A DNA stretch of 64,000 nucleotides from an uncultured Clostridia bacterium (GTDB taxonomy: Bacteria > Bacillota > Clostridia > Oscillospirales > JAAYOS01), in the NCBI GenBank assembly GCA_947593925.1, contig CANQDU010000001.1, positions 141,188 to 205,187 on the forward strand. Reading direction: 5' to 3'. A program made the translations under genes and the position numbers. Of this stretch, positions 9,405-59,201 are shown in pieces; the stretch's first letter is position 1, and every line of letters begins with the position of its first letter. The notes under the pieces are model-generated. The model was not told where the DNA came from. It did no database searches and saw nothing but the letters and a program-made list of their open reading frames with translations.

Positions 9405-10733
9405 TTACAGGCGCTTTGCAAGCTCCGCGCCGAGCTCTTCGTAGCCCGGCTTGCCGAGCAGAGCGAACATGTTCTTCTTGTACGCCTCGACGCCCGGCTG
9501 GTTGAACGGGTTTACGCCGAGGGTGTAGCCCGAGATGCCGCAGGCAAGCTCGAAGAAGTACACGAGCTCGCCGTAGTTGTGCTCGTCGAGCTTATCCATC
9601 GTGACGAGGATGTTCGGCACGCCGCCGTCAACGTGCGCGAGCGCGACGCCGCGCCGCGCCTGCTCGTTGACGTAGTGCAGGTCGCGTCCGGCGATGTAGT
9701 TCAGGCCGTCCACGTTCTCCTCGGTCGCCTCTATCGTGACGTTTCCGTTCGGGTGCTCCATCTTTACGACGGTCTCGAAGATGTTTCTCATACCCTCCTG
9801 GATGTACTGGCCCATCGAGTGAAGGTCGGCCGTGAAGTCGCAGCTTGCCGGGAATATGCCCTTGCCGTCCTTGCCCTCGCTCTCGCCGTAGAGCTGCTTC
9901 CACCACTCCGCCATGAAGCGGAATGCGGGCTCGTAGCAGGCAAGGATCTCGGTGGTCTTGCCCGCGCGGTAGAGCGCGTTGCGCGCGGCGGCGTACTGCC
10001 AGACCGGGTTCGAGAAGGACTTCTCGGAGAACTCCGCCATGGCGCTGTACGCGCCCTTCATGACGGCGTCGATATCTATCCCGGCAGCGGCCATCGGCAG
10101 CAGGCCGACGGCGGAGAGGACGGAGAAGCGTCCGCCGATGTTGTCCGGCACGACGAAGGTCTCATATCCCTCGACGGTGGCGAGGTTCTTCAGGGCGCCC
10201 TTCGCGGCGTCGGTCGTGGCGTAGATGCGGCTCTTTGCGCCCTCCTTGCCGTACTTCTTCTCTATGAGCGCCTTGAAGATGCGGAAGGCGATGGCGGGCT
10301 CGGTGGTCGTGCCCGACTTCGAGATGACGTTTATCGAGAAGTCGCGGTCGCCGATGAGCTCCACTATTTCCTCCGTCGCGGCGGCGGAGATGTTGTTGCC
10401 GGCAAAGAAGATGTCCGGCGTGTTCTTCTTCTTGAGGTTGTAGTTCGGGCTCTTGAGGAACTCTATCGCGGCGCGCGCGCCGAGGTAGCTTCCGCCGATG
10501 CCGATGACGACGAGCGCCTGTGAGTCGCTCTTTATCTTCTCGGCGGCCTTCTTTATGCGCGCGAACTCCTCGCGGTCGTAGTTCTCGGGCAGACGGAGCC
10601 AGCCGAGGAAGTCGCTCCCCGCGCCGGTGCCGGCTTCGAGGGTCTCGTGCGCGGCCTTCAGCTCCGCCGAGAGCGCCTCGATCTTCTCCTTGCTCACAAA
10701 CGGGAACACGTTGGATATGTCGGTCCTTATCAT
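9405..10733 (-). CDS. pgi: Glucose-6-phosphate isomerase
   Basis: The protein matches the Firmicutes-type PGI family ([29 protein letters not shown]). The start is set at MIRTDISN (10733) rather than the longest ORF. Confidence 0.9.
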
Positions 10734-10840
10734 GTTTTTGTCCTCCCCTGAAAGTCGATCGCGAAGCTGCGTTTTCCGAACCAACGGCCGCCCGGCTCCC
10801 CCGGGCATCCGCCCGCAATCGCTTTATTTTCGGTAATATT

Positions 10841-10942: not shown

Positions 10943-11080
10943 CCGCGCCTGTTCGCGCGGTTAAAGTTGATTGCCGCAGGCAAACAACTTTGCGCAGGGG
11001 CAATTCATTTGCCCCGAGCATTTTAATCGGTAGGGTTCCCACGCGGTCGATGACCGCGTGGGACAAGCGAGCGGAGCGGC
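10943..11080 (-). repeat. Four-hairpin module F, copy 1 (part of composite R2, 10870..11121)
   Basis: It is homologous to 25887..26025 and 57975..58112, with hairpins at 10943-10960, 10964-10990, ~10997-11015 and 11037-11063. Confidence 0.8.
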
Positions 11081-11121: not shown

Positions 11122-11418
11122 TCATAAAAACCAGATTATCGCCAGTATCAGCTCCGCGAGCGTCAGCGCCCACACCGACGCCATGAGGTACCCCTTGCGT
11201 ATCTTGTGGTGCGCGGCGTAGAAGCCGATGAGCACCCCGGCGCCGCCGAGCGTCGCGGCAAAGAACACGAACCTCCGCTCGGGCACGCGGCGCTCGTGCC
11301 GTATCGCCGCGCGCTTGTCAAGGAGCGTCACCGTGAGCGCCACGATGTTCCATATCACGACGGCGACGGCGAACGCCGCGGCCGCCGGAACGCTTGTCGA
11401 AAGAAAGCTCTCCGGCAT
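11122..11418 (-). CDS. DUF1294-like small membrane protein
   Basis: The 98-aa protein has TM helices, and the motif LDKRAAIRHERRVPE resembles the DUF1294 family. Confidence 0.65.
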   Translation of the reverse strand: MPESFLSTSVPAAAAFAVAVVIWNIVALTVTLLDKRAAIRHERRVPERRFVFFAATLGGAGVLIGFYAAHHKIRKGYLMASVWALTLAELILAIIWFL

Positions 11419-14462: not shown

Positions 14463-14469
14463 TCGCGTT

Positions 14470-14514
14470 CGCGGGGAATAAGGAGCGGGCAAAGCCCGCT
14501 CCTTATTCCCCGCG
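14470..14514 (+). repeat. Stop-proximal long hairpin (first module of composite R3), 8 nt after the dacB-like stop
   Basis: The sequence is cgcggggaataaggagcgggc-aaa-gcccgctccttattccccgcg. It is homologous to 38739..38787, with a compensatory mid-stem. Confidence 0.75.
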
Positions 14515-14517
14515 AGA

Positions 14518-14600
14518 CCGTCGGACAGGGCGAAGCCCTGCCGACGGCCAGCGCCGTTCTTCGCTCCTCGCGGCTTTGCCGCTTCGAAGCGCGAACGGCG
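14518..14600 (+). repeat. Modules C and D of composite R3
   Basis: C (14518-14547, ccgtcggacagggcgaagccctgccgacgg) and D (14552-14600) parallel 1251-1280 and 1285-1334. Confidence 0.75.
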
Positions 14601-14778
14601 AGAGGTGTAAATTTCGCCGTTCGGTTCGTACAATGTTGGGACGTCGGCGCGAAGCGCCGAGGTCAGATGCGCCCGGTAGAAAGTTCCGGTGCGTAGCAAG
14701 TCGAAGGGCGCATTCACGCCGCCGCCGAAAATAATTTGAACTTATTTCGCCGCTAACGCGGCGAAACTCTGCGAGGCT
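14601..14778 (+). repeat. Module E, long form, copy 2
   Basis: It runs from gagaggtgtaaatttcgcc to atttcgccgctaacgcggcgaaactctgcgaggct and is homologous to the reverse complement of 25677..25853. Confidence 0.8.
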
Positions 14779-14843
14779 TTTGAAAAGCCCGAGGGAGCCG
14801 CTAAACGCGGCTCCCTCGGGTTTGCTTTATTTTGTGCGAATGT

Positions 14844-25886: not shown

Positions 25887-26025
25887 CCGCGCCGGTTCGC
25901 GCGGTTAAAGTTGCTTGCCTATGGCAAGCAACTTTGCGCAGGCGGAATTCACTTCCGCCGAGCATTTCAATCAAAAGGGCTCCCACGCGGTCACTGACCG
26001 CGTGGGAATTGCGAAGCGGAGCGCC
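25887..26025 (-). repeat. Four-hairpin module F, copy 2
   Basis: It is homologous to 10943..11080 and 57975..58112. Stems are at 25887-25904, 25908-25934, ~25941-25959 and 25981-26007. Confidence 0.8.
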
Positions 26026-26116: not shown

Positions 26117-27301
26117 TTACGCGCCCAGCGCCTGCATCGCGGCGAGCAGGAAGCCCGCGGCGACGGCGGAGCCGATAACGCCCGCGACGTTCGGACCCAT
26201 GGCGTGCATGAGCAGGAAGTTCGAGGGATTTGCCTTCTGACCCTCGACCTGCGACACGCGCGCCGCCATCGGGACGGCGGACACGCCGGCCGAGCCGATA
26301 AGCGGGTTGATCTTGCCGTGAGTGAGCCAGCACATGAGCTTGCCGAGCAGCAGGCCGCCGACGGTCGAGAAGCAGAACGCCAGCAGTCCGAGCGCTATGA
26401 TGCAGAGCGTGCGGACCTGGAGGAAGTTCGAGCCGACAGTCGTTGCGCCGACCGAGATGCTGAGGAATATCGTGACGATGTTCATCAGCGCGTTCTGCGC
26501 GGTGTCGCTGAGACGGTCAGTGACGCCGCACTCCTTGAGCAGGTTGCCGAGCATCAGCATACCGAGCAGCGGAGCCACGGACGGCAGAAGCAGCACGGTG
26601 AAGATGGTCACGACTATCGGGAAAATTATCTTCTCGCGCTTGGTGACGGTGCGGAGCTGCTCCATCTTTATCTCGCGCTCCTTCTTCGTCGTCAGCAGCC
26701 GCATGAGCGGAGGCTGAATGAGCGGTATCAGCGCCATGTAGCTGTACGCCGCTATCGCTATCGGGCCGAGAAGGTCGGGCGCGAGCTTGTTTGTGAGCCA
26801 GATGGCGGTCGGGCCGTCCGCGCCGCCGATGATGCCTATCGAGGCCGCCTCGTTGCCGAAGAAGCCGAGCAGCAGGGCGAGCATGAACGCGCAGTAGACG
26901 CCGAGCTGTGCCGCCGCGCCGAGGAAGAGCGACTTCGGGTTGGAGAGCAGCGGGCCGAAGTCGGTCATCGCGCCGACGCCGAGGAATATCAGCGACGGAT
27001 AGATGCCGGTCTTGACGCCGATGTAGAGTATGTCGAGCAGGCCGCCCTCATGCAGCACCTTGGAGTAGCTGATGTTCTCCGGCGCACCCGCCCACAGCTC
27101 CGGGTGATACACACCCGCACCGGGGAGGTTCGTGAGCAGCGTTCCGAACGCTATGCCGACAAGCAGCAGCGGCTCGAATTTCTTGACGATGCCCAGGTAG
27201 AGAAGAACGCACGCGACGATTATCATCACGAGGTTCTGCCAGTTTCCGCCCGCCTGGTAGAAACCGGATGTCTCCCAGACTCTCTGAATTACTTCTAACA
27301 T
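26117..27301 (-). CDS. oadB: Sodium ion-translocating decarboxylase, beta subunit
   Basis: The polytopic protein shows strong OadB/GcdB/MmdB family similarity (GIAFGTLLTNLPG, IIGGADGPT, SAGVSAVPMAARV). Confidence 0.9.
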   Translation of the reverse strand: MLEVIQRVWETSGFYQAGGNWQNLVMIIVACVLLYLGIVKKFEPLLLVGIAFGTLLTNLPGAGVYHPELWAGAPENISYSKVLHEGGLLDILYIGVKTGIYPSLIFLGVGAMTDFGPLLSNPKSLFLGAAAQLGVYCAFMLALLLGFFGNEAASIGIIGGADGPTAIWLTNKLAPDLLGPIAIAAYSYMALIPLIQPPLMRLLTTKKEREIKMEQLRTVTKREKIIFPIVVTIFTVLLLPSVAPLLGMLMLGNLLKECGVTDRLSDTAQNALMNIVTIFLSISVGATTVGSNFLQVRTLCIIALGLLAFCFSTVGGLLLGKLMCWLTHGKINPLIGSAGVSAVPMAARVSQVEGQKANPSNFLLMHAMGPNVAGVIGSAVAAGFLLAAMQALGA

Positions 27302-27330: not shown

Positions 27331-27726
27331 TTAGCCGAGAACAACAAGCGGAGCGCCGGTATCGACGGTGCTTCCCTGGGCGGCGACTATCTGGGTAACG
27401 GTACCGTCATGCGGAGCGACGATCTCGTTTTCCATCTTCATGGCCTCGAGTATGACGAGGATCTGACCGGCCTTGACGGCCTCGCCCTGCTTGACCTTTA
27501 TCGAAAGGACGGTGCCGGGCATCGGAGCGGTGACCTGCTCGCCGGGGCCTACCGGAGCGGCGGGGGCGGGAGCCGGAGCGGCCGCAGGAGCGGGCGCGGC
27601 GGCAGGGGCGGGCGCGGCGGGGGCCGCGACTACGGGAGCGGCGTACTGACCGACTACGACGGCCTCGCCCTTCTCCACTTCTACCTCGTAGGTGGTGCCG
27701 TTAAGAGTGACCTTGTACTTTTTCAT
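27331..27726 (-). CDS. Biotin carboxyl carrier subunit (biotinyl domain)
   Basis: A Pro/Ala linker precedes the biotinylation motif EAMKMENEI. Confidence 0.85.
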
Positions 27727-38787: not shown

Positions 38788-39105
38788 GCCGCCGGACAGA
38801 GCGGAGCTCTGCCGGCGGCAACGCTACGCTACGCGCCGAGTTTTCCGCCTTCGGCGGAAAATCGACGCACGCTCCGCGAGAGGTGTAAATTTCGCCGTAC
38901 ACGCCGCCGAAATTTACGGATTTGAATTTATTTCGCGCCAAAGGTGCGAAACTCTGCGAGGCTTGATTGCACTGTCCGCGCCGGTTCGCGCGGTGCGGCT
39001 TTGCCACTCGAAGCGCACTGCATACTGCACTATGTCGGGGAGTTGGCGCGCAGTTCACGGGCTTATCGAACAGCCGAAGCGGAGCCCCGTGCGGGCTTCG
39101 CTTTT
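38788..39105 (+). repeat. Remainder of composite R6 (module C 38788-38819, D-like, E short 38878-38963, partial F-type hairpin, terminal hairpin)
   Basis: The shared strings gccgccggacag..ctgccggcggc, gagaggtgtaaatttcgcc, atttcgcgccaaaggtgcgaaactctgcgaggct and ccgcgccggttcgcgcgg are all present. Confidence 0.7.
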
Positions 39106-54884: not shown

Positions 54885-55765
54885 GCAGGCGGAGCCCGCA
54901 ACCCTCCAGCGGGGAAGCCCCCGCGAGCATTCGCGGGGCGAGCCCCGCGTCCCTAGGTAGAGCGGAGCTCTACCGACACATTGCGGGGGCACTGCCCCCG
55001 CACCCCCGGCGGGGCTGTGCCGCCCCGCACCCCTGCATTACTTTTTGCTCGCGCAAAAAGTAATCAAAAAGCGCGCTTAAGGGAGAGGGCTTTGCCCTCT
55101 CCCTTAAAAATCCCTCTCCCAATACAGACACACAACCGCAACCCACATAACAGGACAAACTCCGTATCAAACAAATCCGTCATCCGACCGGGTGAGTTTC
55201 TGGGGATACAATATCCGACTTTCCCACTATATCGACGACATCGAACAGTTCCTGCGTAGTAGAAATAAAAGTCCGGTCCTACGCTCACACTATAAGCGTA
55301 ATGCAGATGCTATCCCGAGAAAACGAAACTTTCGGTTCTAGTGGAAAGTATGAGCGTAGACGCTTGTACTAAGCTGCGGACGGGCGTCCCGCGTAGCAGA
55401 GATTTTCCGGTTAAGGAAAGAGGGGTACAAAGGGGAGAAAACCGTTGGTTTTCTCCCCTTTGTGTGCTTTTTGGTTACTTTTTGCACAAGCAAAAAGTAA
55501 CGCAGGGCGCGGGGGCGCCGCCCCCGCAAAGTGCCGGTGAGGCTCTGCCTCACTCAGGGACGCGGGGCCCGCCCCGCGAATGCTCGCGGGGCTTCCCCGC
55601 TGGATGGGTGTGGGCTTTGCCCACTTAGGGACGCTGGGCCGCCCCCGCGAATGCTCGCGGGGCTTCCCCGCTCGATGGGAGTGGGCTTTGCCCGCTTTGG
55701 TGCGGGGCTTTCCCGCTATTCGGGCGCGGGTGCTTGCCCCGCAAATCTGCGGGCTCCGCCCGCAG
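54885..55765. repeat. ~880-bp non-coding element: long imperfect inverted arms built of GC-rich hairpin modules around a lower-GC core
   Basis: The left arm (54885-~55125) is the reverse complement of parts of the right arm (~55414-55765). For example, 54906-54954 matches 55556-55603 and 55627-55675 in inverted orientation. The ends are gcaggcggagcccgc and gcgggctccgcccgc. Confidence 0.75.
55556..55697 (+). repeat. Tandem duplication of a 71-nt module inside the right arm
   Basis: 55556-55626 and 55627-55697 are about 90 percent identical by eye. Confidence 0.75.
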
Positions 55766-57280: not shown

Positions 57281-57379
57281 CGCGCGCAAAAGTTTTTCTT
57301 ACATTCCGGCCCTGAAATATGTTATAATCGGTATAAAGACGGATGAAAGAAGCTTTGCGCTGCGGAAAGGTGAGTTTTG

Positions 57380-57883
57380 ATGTATCTGGTAGGAGAAACG
57401 GTGGTCTACGGGCTCATGGGAGTATGCGTAGTCGAGGCCGTAGGCGAGCTTGATATGCAGGGCGCGGACAAGGGCAGGAGCTACTACACCCTCGCGCCTC
57501 TACACCGGGACGGGAAGATATTTGCCCCGGTGGATACGTCGGTCGCCATGCGCCGCGCCATGACGCGGGAACAGGCGATGGAGCTCATTCGCAGCATGCC
57601 CGCCATAGAGCGCGACACCTACGAAAGCAACAATCCGCGCATGCTCGACGAGCATTACAGGACGTATCTGAAAAGCGGGGACTGCGTGGATCTCGTGCGG
57701 GTCGTGCGGACGGTCTACGCCAAGAGCCGCCTCGCCGCCGAGAAGGGACGCCGCCTCGGTCAGGTGGACGAACGGAGCATGAAGCGCGCGGAGGAGATGC
57801 TGTATGACGAGCTCGCCTTTGCCCTCGACATGCGCCCGGACGAGGTGAAGGACTTCATCTGCGTGACGCTGGGAGACAAATAA
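57380..57883 (+). CDS. CarD/CdnL-family transcriptional regulator-like protein
   Basis: A CarD_TRCF-like N-terminus (GETVVYGLMGVCVVEAV...YYTL) is followed by a helical C-terminus. Confidence 0.75.
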   Translation: MYLVGETVVYGLMGVCVVEAVGELDMQGADKGRSYYTLAPLHRDGKIFAPVDTSVAMRRAMTREQAMELIRSMPAIERDTYESNNPRMLDEHYRTYLKSGDCVDLVRVVRTVYAKSRLAAEKGRRLGQVDERSMKRAEEMLYDELAFALDMRPDEVKDFICVTLGDK

Positions 57884-57887
57884 AACT

Positions 57888-57941
57888 TCGCTGCAAATCG
57901 CGGGCGCGGATTTCATCCGCGCCCTTACCAATTTGCAGCGA
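57888..57941 (+). repeat. Module A, copy 3, starting 4 nt after the carD-like stop
   Basis: It is identical to 1157-1210 over 54 nt. Confidence 0.9.
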
Positions 57942-57942
57942 A

Positions 57943-57974
57943 GCCGCCGGACAAGGCGTAGCCTTGCCGGCGGC
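57943..57974 (+). repeat. Module C copy
   Basis: The sequence is gccgccggacaaggcgtagccttgccggcggc. Confidence 0.7.
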
Positions 57975-58112
57975 AGCGCTCCGCTACGCATTCCCACGCG
58001 GTCGGCGACCGCGTGGGAGCCCTTCCGATTAAAATGCTCGCCCCGAATGAATCGGGGCTCCGCGAAGTTGCTTGCCTGTGGCAAGCAACTTCAACCGCGC
58101 GAACCGGCGCGG
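57975..58112 (+). repeat. Four-hairpin module F, copy 3
   Basis: It is colinear with the reverse complements of 10943..11080 and 25887..26025. Confidence 0.8.
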
Positions 58113-58149
58113 AGTGCGGCTCCGCCGTCTTCGACGCACGCTCCGCACA

Positions 58150-58302
58150 GTACACAGTCGGGACGTCGGCGCGAAGCGCCGACGTCTGATGCGCCCGGAA
58201 GAAGGTCGGATGAGGTATTGGTTCGAGGGCGCATTGTACACGCCGTCGGAAAAAATGAATTTAACTCTATTTCGCGCCCTTGGCGCGAAACTCTGCGAGG
58301 CT
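58150..58302 (+). repeat. Module E, copy 5
   Basis: gggacgtcggcgcgaagcgccgacgtc, gatgcgccc..gggcgcatt and atttcgcgcccttggcgcgaaactctgcgaggct are present. Confidence 0.8.
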
Positions 58303-58321
58303 TAGAAGCGGTTATAAAATT

Positions 58322-58349
58322 AAGGGGGCAGACTTTCGTCTGCCCCCTT
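58322..58349. terminator. Hairpin closing composite R8 (between the convergent carD-like gene and proC)
   Basis: The sequence is aagggggcagac-tttc-gtctgccccctt. Confidence 0.5.
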
Positions 58350-58364
58350 CTGTGCACTGTGACA

Positions 58365-59201
58365 TCACTTGCCCGCTATCTCGAGCGTTCTTTCGTAGGC
58401 GGCGATGACCGCCTCCATGGCGGCGGAGCGGAACCCGCCCGCCTCGAGCGCGCGGACGCCCTGTATCGTCGTGCCGGCGGGCGAGGTGACGGCGTCCTTG
58501 AGAGCTCCCGGGTGCTTCCCGCTCTCGAGCACCATCCGCGCGGCGCCCTCGACCGCGCCCGCCGCGAACGCCACGGCCTTGTCGCGCGGCAGTCCGCACG
58601 CGACGCCGCCGTCCGCGAGCGCCTCGACGAACATGTACACGAACGCCGGTCCGCAGCCGGAGACAGCCGCGGCGGCGTCGATGAGGTTTTCGGGTATCCG
58701 TTCGAGCAGTCCCGCGGGACGGAGCAGTGCCTCAAAACCCGCAAGCGTCTCTTCGTCCGCGCCGAGCGAGCATATCTGCACCACCCCCGCGCCGATGGCG
58801 GCGGGAGTGTTCGGCATTATGCGGATGACGGGGCAGTCCGTGCCGGCGAGCTCGCGTATTCGCTCGCAGGAGACGCCCGCCGCCATCGTGACGAGGGTGT
58901 ATCCGTCCGTACGCCCGCGCAGGATCGGCGCGATCTCGCCAAACAACCCCTCGAGCATCTGCGGCTTCACGCCGAGGAAGATGAGGCCGCACTCGCGGGC
59001 GGCTTCGGCGTTCGAGACGGCGCGCGCGTCCGCGCCGTCACGACGAAGCTCCTCCGCAAGACGCTCCGCCTTTGAGGCGGTGCGGTTGGAGAGCAGGAAG
59101 CGGACGCCCGCCGCCACGTCCGACTTCGCCGCCGCGTGCGCGAGGGCGGAGCCCATGTTCCCCGTCCCGATAAATCCTATCGTACCAAACTTTTTCGGCA
59201 T
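58365..59201 (-). CDS. proC: Pyrroline-5-carboxylate reductase
   Basis: IGFIGTGNMGSA (NADP-binding) and the family C-terminus GGFRSAAMEAV are present. Confidence 0.9.
   Translation of the reverse strand: MPKKFGTIGFIGTGNMGSALAHAAAKSDVAAGVRFLLSNRTASKAERLAEELRRDGADARAVSNAEAARECGLIFLGVKPQMLEGLFGEIAPILRGRTDGYTLVTMAAGVSCERIRELAGTDCPVIRIMPNTPAAIGAGVVQICSLGADEETLAGFEALLRPAGLLERIPENLIDAAAAVSGCGPAFVYMFVEALADGGVACGLPRDKAVAFAAGAVEGAARMVLESGKHPGALKDAVTSPAGTTIQGVRALEAGGFRSAAMEAVIAAYERTLEIAGK

Follow-up and report, generated by a model that had tools for sequence, protein, structure and literature searches.

Three copies of a four-hairpin module in the window

The window, the whole 64-kb stretch of DNA under study, contains three copies of a repeated unit that we call module F, verified at 57992-58112 (+), 25887-26007 (-) and 10943-11063 (-) and referred to below as the 58k, 26k and 11k copies. 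The 58k copy lies between two convergent genes, a CarD-like gene (57377-57883, +) and proC (58365-59201, -); the ProC protein of the window was found on metagenome contigs only. The 26k copy is located downstream of the OAD_beta (oxaloacetate-decarboxylase beta) gene (26117-27301, -), and the 11k copy between a DUF1294 gene (11122-11418, -) and pgi (9405-10808, -). These flanking genes were assigned by Pfam scans and a codon-usage gene finder, which agreed with each other and with the public gene calls. Around the copies, the intergenic regions consist wholly of further hairpin modules that are themselves repeats, with recurrences near 1150-1420, 14500-14780 and 38860-38965. One of them, D13, starts at the CarD stop codon at 57881, and the 26k copy is flanked by modules in the same order as those at 57881-57974.

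We define the reading strand of module F as the strand that opens with TCCCACGCGGTC-NNN-GACCGCGTGGGA, which is the plus strand for the 58k copy and the minus strand for the 26k and 11k copies. The unit spans ~120 nt (about 121 nt in the window copies) and consists of four independent local hairpins (hp1 to hp4) with short conserved single-stranded linkers between them. In the window copies, hp1 has a 12-bp stem, the same in all three, and a 3-nt loop (ggc, agt or atc). A 21-nt linker, GCCCTTCCGATTRAAATGCTC, leads to hp2, which combines a 7-bp stem (GCCCCGA, GGCGGAA and GGGGCAA in the window copies, each with a perfect partner arm) with the loop RTGAA. The spacer TSCGC then precedes hp3 (13-bp stem, 3-nt loop), and AA separates hp3 from hp4 (CCGCGC-6 nt-GCGCGG). 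The features are as follows; bit scores are those of the R1 covariance model.

57881-57974, plus strand: neighbouring mosaic modules, a nested terminator-like hairpin (repeat D13, also at 1150-1210) followed by the hairpin GCCGCCGGACAAGGCGTAGCCTTGCCGGCGGC
57992-58112, plus strand: module F copy 1 (58k), 139.3 bits
57992-58003/58007-58018, plus strand: copy 1 hp1
58019-58039, plus strand: copy 1 linker, GCCCTTCCGATTAAAATGCTC
58040-58046/58052-58058, plus strand: copy 1 hp2, loop ATGAA, with TCCGC after hp2
58064-58076/58080-58092, plus strand: copy 1 hp3
58095-58100/58107-58112, plus strand: copy 1 hp4
58113-58364, plus strand: further mosaic modules, D10-like and D16 (58150-58206), then D5/D2 (58236-58303)
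58349-58322, minus strand: proC terminator, after the D5/D2 modules
25887-26007, minus strand: module F copy 2 (26k), 142.2 bits
26007-25996/25992-25981, minus strand: copy 2 hp1
25959-25953/25947-25941, minus strand: copy 2 hp2, stem GGCGGAA, loop GTGAA
25935-25923/25919-25907, minus strand: copy 2 hp3
25904-25899/25892-25887, minus strand: copy 2 hp4
10943-11063, minus strand: module F copy 3 (11k), 130.7 bits
11063-11052/11048-11037, minus strand: copy 3 hp1
11015-11009/11003-10997, minus strand: copy 3 hp2, stem GGGGCAA
10991-10979/10975-10963, minus strand: copy 3 hp3, with one T·T mismatch
10960-10955/10948-10943, minus strand: copy 3 hp4

Pattern searches of the window recovered exactly these three places. 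The hp1 pattern gave 6 strand-symmetric matches versus 0.00 expected from shuffles, the hp3/hp4 junction pattern gave 3 versus 0.04, and folding z-scores of the copies range from -5.9 to -7.9 on either strand relative to shuffled sequence. The initial annotation had reported three copies with shared linkers and different yet complementary stems, and we found them where it placed them. Its third hairpin, which is hp2 on the reading strand, indeed changes its stem from copy to copy and keeps its loop, each stem being perfectly partnered. The strings that it quoted, TTAAAGTTG and GAGCATTT(T/C)AATC, are present as the reverse complement of the reading strand. The stretches that it delimited can be aligned across ~140 nt and include the unit, but their 5' 17 nt (CGCTCCGCT.CGCAATT) correspond to a frequent neighbouring module that is absent from some copies. 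Likewise, its fourth hairpin (hp1 on the reading strand) keeps its stem in the three window copies but has at least four stem alleles across the family.

Several neighbouring repeats deserve description. A nested terminator-like module, with the sequence TAA(A/G)A(C/T)TT(T)CGC..., opens exactly at the TAA of the upstream gene at 1150-1210, 57881-57941 and 26119-26060 (-), the stop codon and terminator being seemingly supplied or abutted by the repeat. The D2/D5 module (1366-1417, 14727-14778, 38912-38963 and 58251-58302) behaves like module F, with conserved flanks (ATTTCG...CGAAACTCTGCGAGGCT) and a stem that is variable yet complementary (GCCGC-TAAA-GCGGC, GCGCC-AAAG-GTGCG, GCGCC-CTT-GGCGC). 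Two tandem units of 71 nt at 55536-55677, which either directly precede a MatE ORF or overlap its start, contain CGCGAATGCTCGCGGGG, similar to the AAATGCTCG end of the module F linker. A G+C-rich tandem repeat with an 18-nt period (GCGGGCGCGGCGGCAGGG-like) occupies 27551-27633, inside a predicted minus-strand gene.

The spacers holding the window copies are either preceded by a terminator-like hairpin and followed by a promoter-like site, or enclosed by two convergent terminators, and are likely to be untranscribed. The hairpins of module F do not themselves resemble intrinsic terminators: a T run after the hairpin is absent from the consensus of all four, and the only one flagged as a terminator is hp1 of the 26k copy, owing to the variant CCCTTTTGAT.

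Module F is abundant in three rabbit-gut species

An exact scan for the linker pattern, with one representative genome per species, yielded at least 93 further stretches, all of them within three species of rabbit-gut metagenome-assembled genomes (MAGs) recorded as 'uncultured Clostridia bacterium', a lineage of roughly 62% G+C. A regular expression recovered 104 distinct copies, and an nhmmer profile gave 179 matches in 0.75 Mb of loci picked for containing module F, with 118 full-length units, ~30 left halves and ~25 right halves. In some copies, a different module of ~85 nt stands in for hp2. Because half units and hp2-replaced copies exist, the module is itself a mosaic of smaller units. 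Extrapolation from these element-containing loci suggests that each genome carries many tens of copies, or a hundred and more. Rather than a singular structured RNA, module F is one unit type of a very abundant interspersed mosaic repeat. No module F match was found in the viral contigs, plasmids and phages searched, which gives no link to known mobile replicons.

Almost all full-length copies (112 of 118) lie outside predicted genes. With gene orientation taken from a simple in-house gene finder, checked against Pfam and public gene calls, 32 copies lie between convergent, 47 between co-directional and 9 between divergent genes, and 6 overlap predicted genes. Sense copies are weakly favoured in co-directional spacers (28 sense vs 19 antisense), and the hp1 side faces a gene 3' end in 68 cases vs 30 in which it faces a gene start. 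This last bias is real and is unexpected for a purely strand-blind DNA element. Near terminator-like hairpins (within 150 nt) of the rabbit genomes, the copies displayed no orientation preference (24, 29, 20 and 30 of 108), and the idea of terminator targeting, which came from the human-gut relatives described below, was dropped. Units within 400 nt of each other are on the same strand in 16 of 17 cases, forming head-to-tail arrays in which up to four units repeat every 118-126 or 145-148 nt.

Pairing is preserved while stems vary

We aligned 90 rabbit-MAG copies with MAFFT, without regard to structure. Of the 3310 stem cells, 96.9% are standard pairs, versus 36-44% when the partners are slid by 1-3 columns. 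Both sides change in 23 of 38 pairs (479 cells), and none of 500 shuffles attained the observed pairing values. As paralogous copies might inherit both arms jointly, we compared the paired columns with those of adjacent hairpins. Paired variable columns, 8-28 nt apart, have a mean normalised mutual information (NMI) of 0.90, versus 0.034 (maximum, 0.16) for variable columns of adjacent hairpins within 25 nt; physical linkage therefore cannot account for the covariation. The double-sided covariation noted in the window proved highly significant in larger alignments, is also seen in 25 independent human-gut relatives (below), and is specific to pairing.

These data demonstrate that the preserved property is the hairpin-forming potential. 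The further contention that selection acts on structure rather than on sequence gives only part of the picture, since the sequences of the linker (GATTRAAATGCTC) and of the hp2 loop RTGAA are conserved too, and far more so than the stems. This conservation implies sequence-specific recognition by a putative partner. The pairing itself may be produced by hairpin-templated correction or gene conversion, neither of which needs selection.

One association extends beyond the helices. At column 80 of alignment A2 (window positions 58060, 25939 and 10995), the G or C of T-S-CGC tracks the second base pair of hp2, with an NMI of 0.73 with columns 60 and 77, and tracks neither the closer stem columns nor hp3. 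A search by eye for a partner of this base that would explain its association with pair 60:77 found none.

Palindromic stem alleles reassort among copies

Each hairpin slot draws on a small repertoire of discrete stem alleles, all perfectly palindromic, which are combined almost at random. Hp2 has five main alleles (GGCGGAA, GCCCCGA, GGGGCAA, GGGGCGA and GCCGGAA), most of which differ by G-C/C-G flips; hp1 has 4 alleles, hp3 6 or more and hp4 2. The 111 copies typed carry 81 distinct combinations, and mutual information between hairpins barely exceeds the permutation null.

Comparison of sister genomes shows how fast these combinations change. The 26k copy and its orthologue at L045, whose flanking proteins are 98-99% identical, share hp1, the linker and hp4, and have different alleles at hp2 and hp3. 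Of the copies in 23 orthologous intergenic regions that we compared across genomes, some are identical and many differ in one to all hairpins, in the number of units (1 vs 2, 2 vs 3, 1 vs 4) or in presence. Cassette exchange is therefore rapid compared with the divergence between flanking genes. In several copies (e.g., L057, L068, L018 and L081), hp3 is chimeric, its 5' and 3' arms coming from two different alleles, which places break-points inside a hairpin. Mismatched arms are nevertheless rare, indicating that pairing is restored or selected. Taken together, these whole-stem swaps and chimeric arms show that the compensatory stem replacement described initially is mostly the swapping of ready-made palindromic cassettes among copies, an exchange among few pre-existing alleles and not stepwise compensatory mutation at each locus.

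Neither a clean single-unit insertion nor a target-site duplication was recovered, the orthologous differences consisting of multi-module blocks bounded by other repeats. Three pairs of loci considered as clean empty sites (L090/L032, L020/L062 and L063/L057) proved to be patchworks of modules or alignments in the wrong orientation, from which nothing could be learned about the target site. At L041, the site orthologous to window positions 14463-14843 holds an extra block of ~315 nt that includes an inverted F unit.

A subfamily (L047:3938-4053, L009:3127-3244, L022:1669-1791 and L063:7500-7621) has an hp1 that ends in GGGG instead of GGG. The 5' CCC of hp1 and the CCC that follows it lengthen as well (GGG-AG-CCC to GGGG-A-CCCC), a three-way change suggestive of an alternative pairing or of a GGGnnCCC site.

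Low-copy relatives occur in human-gut contigs

A search of metagenome contigs with a pattern made of the linker end, the hp2 loop and TSCGC returned 74 stretches, mostly from the human gut and with one copy each. The covariance model built from rabbit copies alone matched the human-gut relatives over the full length of the model (27-85 bits) and detected only two extra copies in 0.53 Mb. When 25 distinct human-gut sequences were fitted to this rabbit-built model, 92.2% of the cells paired, versus 42-46% with slid partners, and both sides changed in 29 of 37 pairs. Aligned directly, the relatives have invariant unpaired bases and an additional, fifth hairpin. The whole architecture is kept across species of 47-64% G+C. 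Hence the family is old and usually low-copy, and its expansion in the rabbit gut is lineage-specific.

In six contexts the relatives follow tRNA operons (Lys in two lineages, Leu-CAG, Leu-TAG, Cys and Arg-CCG), always on the tRNA strand and 50-80 nt past the last tRNA (206 nt in one case). There they sit behind a terminator-type hairpin and are often bracketed by two; in some species, a terminator hairpin fills the hp1 slot. Conservation across species next to tRNA operons looks like that of a functional element more than that of junk. Orthologues contain a few G·U pairs on the tRNA-sense strand, e.g. in hp3 of L138 vs L113. The commonest human-gut species has a single locus, the upstream side of which varies through an inserted integrase island or DDE insertion sequence.

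Two further features of these contigs were recorded. The terminator hairpins behind different tRNA operons (L107, L138, L113 and L097), which begin 50-75 nt past the 3' end of the tRNA, have the flanks AAAAAGAAAG...CTTTCTTTTT in common and different, complementary inner stems (GACACGAC, ACATCTGC and GCACGCC), i.e. a constant frame with an exchangeable stem. In the L102 and L130 contig groups (L102:1836-2121 and L130:4937-5222), the F-like element separates tandem paralogous small genes, lying between near-identical short coding-like copies on the opposite strand.

Module F resembles, and differs from, known interspersed repeats

In its behaviour, module F comes closest to the REP/BIME/REPIN elements of Proteobacteria, which are associated with RAYTs, and to pneumococcal BOX elements. 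The former are also short G+C-rich extragenic palindromes in many copies, joined into mosaics by conserved linker motifs, found mainly at gene 3' ends, with several stem families per genome and rapid gain and loss between relatives (PMC3116915, PMC6006769). Module F shares no sequence similarity with them and is hosted by a Clostridia lineage. Its units combine four distinct hairpins in constant order and are repeated head-to-tail, whereas REPs form inverted doublets, and the stems that occupy a given slot behave as interchangeable alleles. No RAYT was found in the 1.28 Mb of fetched DNA, and no GTAG-type guide was apparent; the conserved flanks are ATT before hp1 and GCTC before hp2.

Among Firmicutes, the BOX elements of S. 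pneumoniae and S. suis (boxA-boxB(n)-boxC) are likewise modular interspersed repeats with variable tandem internal modules and extensive predicted stem-loops, intergenic, clustered with other repeat families and with no autonomous partner firmly identified (PMC3049150). Their boxA and boxC terminal inverted repeats pair together, whereas the hairpins of module F are local and independent; judged by this architecture, the two would not be homologous. BOX elements are also reported to be largely static between strains (PMC3049150), whereas module F differs where flanking genes are 97-99% identical. Module F also lacks the terminal inverted repeats of a MITE: its ends (TCCCA... and ...GGCGCGG) are not complementary, and all of the predicted pairing is local to the four hairpins.

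Neisserial NIME/Correia elements and bcr1 of the Bacillus cereus group are mosaic intergenic repeats as well, and bcr1 is reported to preserve a fold of the RNA type, its copies differing by compensatory changes. Unlike module F, in which neither feature was seen, Correia and bcr1 carry terminal inverted repeats and target duplications.

Scanning the window and 39 loci with Rfam 15 at the gathering thresholds detected only tRNAs and one ZMP-ZTP riboswitch, the latter in a rabbit-MAG locus and unrelated to module F (L013:489-566, 51.5 bits). The only near-threshold model was RF01700 (Collinsella-1), a multi-hairpin motif from gut metagenomes that, like module F, is a series of hairpins from gut bacteria; it scored 27.4 bits (E ~2e-5; gathering score, 35) on the reverse strand at 57903-58092. 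We rejected this identity: the match is sub-threshold and hairpin-to-hairpin, with almost no shared sequence and a 33-nt insertion. None of 19 further loci matched this model at threshold, and scanning two regions by E-value, one of them a human-gut relative, returned only sub-threshold Collinsella-1 and weak hairpin-shaped noise. Readings of module F as a tRNA-like element, a T-loop, an IHF site or attC were dropped, as the matching motifs are lacking.

Origin and maintenance of module F

We consider it probable that module F is one unit type of a new family of hairpin-forming, interspersed mosaic palindromic repeats of the REP/BIME/BOX kind. Ectopic gene conversion or template switching, breaking within the conserved linkers, would exchange short tracts between copies, and arrays would grow and shrink by unequal recombination or slippage. 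Mismatched arms would be removed by selection or re-symmetrised by hairpin-templated repair, so that the element would be maintained as a hairpin-forming structure, in DNA that is single-stranded during replication or repair, in read-through RNA, or in both. Its location at the 3' ends of genes and its scarcity in divergent spacers would fit a tolerated, largely selfish element, with possible secondary effects on transcripts such as 3'-end stabilisation or read-through control.

Other explanations have to be weighed against this one. Chance resemblance or an assembly artefact can practically be dismissed: the source is a metagenome assembly, but the same element occurs in independent assemblies from different samples and hosts, and the pattern matches far exceed the shuffled expectation, which already refutes chance. 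Module F might instead be a structured RNA, either a small RNA gene family or a cis-acting 3'-UTR or trailer element (a stabiliser, a processing or a read-through signal), its hairpins being selected as RNA and its conserved linker and RTGAA loop serving as protein- or RNA-binding sites. The strong covariation tied to structure, seen both inside the genome family and between species, the conserved unpaired nucleotides, the tRNA-strand position of the human-gut relatives directly behind six tRNA operons, often between two terminator hairpins, the hp1 side turned to gene 3' ends (68 vs 30) and a few G·U pairs on the tRNA-sense strand of orthologues (e.g., in hp3 of L138 vs L113) are all consistent with this. 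Helix-supporting covariation of the kind expected of structured RNAs in general is indeed present, but the strand-specific signals (G·U over A·C, an own promoter or terminator, consistent orientation) are not. Mismatches in helices 1-3 comprise 24 G·T or T·G and 25 A·C or C·A, so that neither strand has the wobble tolerance expected of a selected RNA. The sense excess in co-directional spacers is only 28 vs 19, and no convincing promoter was found on either strand of the window copies or of the human-gut relatives; for lack of an acceptable one, an sRNA gene on the reverse strand was also discarded. Moreover, the window copies lie past terminator-like hairpins, copies in the rabbit genomes are not preferentially oriented with respect to nearby terminators, an RNA gene would be unusual in having over 100 copies whose stems are freely shuffled, and no Rfam family matches at threshold. 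A structured RNA thus appears rather unlikely. The initial annotation left the choice between RNA and single-stranded DNA undecided, and nothing in the mismatch or sense/antisense counts favours RNA over DNA; judged from sequence features, the placement, mismatches and arrays would be better accounted for by an interspersed DNA repeat, tolerated at the ends of genes, than by a transcribed RNA gene.

That module F is a non-autonomous mobile element, carried in single-stranded form by an enzyme acting in trans, is quite unlikely in our view. The enzyme would be a single-copy HUH/Y1 transposase (RAYT, IS200/IS605 type) or an RNA- or structure-guided recombinase that recognises the hairpins together with the conserved single-stranded linker, the stems being free to vary since shape alone matters. 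TnpA(IS200) and TnpA(REP) recognise hairpins with conserved flanking single-stranded bases (PMC6006769, PMC3116915), an arrangement that module F resembles; the strand-symmetric mismatch spectrum, the differences in copy presence and number between sister genomes and the massive lineage-specific expansion compared with low-copy relatives would also suit mobility. However, no transposase, target-site duplication or clean empty site was found in the fetched loci, nor any clean insertion with defined ends or a conserved target, and all-against-all clustering of their 607 predicted proteins revealed no multi-copy protein family. A tblastn search of the 1.28 Mb of fetched DNA with an approximate IS200 TnpA query gave no match, so that neither a Y1 transposase nor a repeated protein gene was seen there; both are weak tests, RAYTs being single-copy. 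Close neighbours are head-to-tail (16 of 17), unlike the inverted doublets typical of REPINs, and no GTAG-like conserved 5' tetranucleotide was apparent. It is also possible, if somewhat improbable, that the conserved core (linker, hp2 with RTGAA, TSCGC, hp3, AC and hp4) is a functional and so far undescribed structured element of gut Clostridia that underwent a SINE- or REP-like expansion in the rabbit lineage. It would then be a tRNA-operon-trailer RNA or a single-stranded-DNA recognition site, present in one or few copies per genome behind tRNA operons, with the stems acting as exchangeable, 'address-free' scaffolds that present invariant single-stranded bases to a putative partner. If so, the combinatorial stems would reflect a dedicated structure-guided recombination or copying process, and not ordinary gene conversion.

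Significance

Module F constitutes a well-defined and statistically supported repeat family for gut bacteria known from metagenomes only, in which such elements are uncatalogued. It provides an unusually clean case in which helices are held by pairing-specific association while adjacent helices recombine freely, and which lets structural constraint be told apart from physical linkage. Repeats of this kind interrupt assemblies, mislead gene callers when the G+C content is high and pass for structured RNAs when genomes are screened for covariation; recognising them should reduce the number of false RNA-gene calls. The low-copy relatives linked to tRNA operons keep alive the reading of a functional element turned repetitive in one lineage, and those of the human gut offer a testable route to the original function of the family and to the trigger of its expansion.
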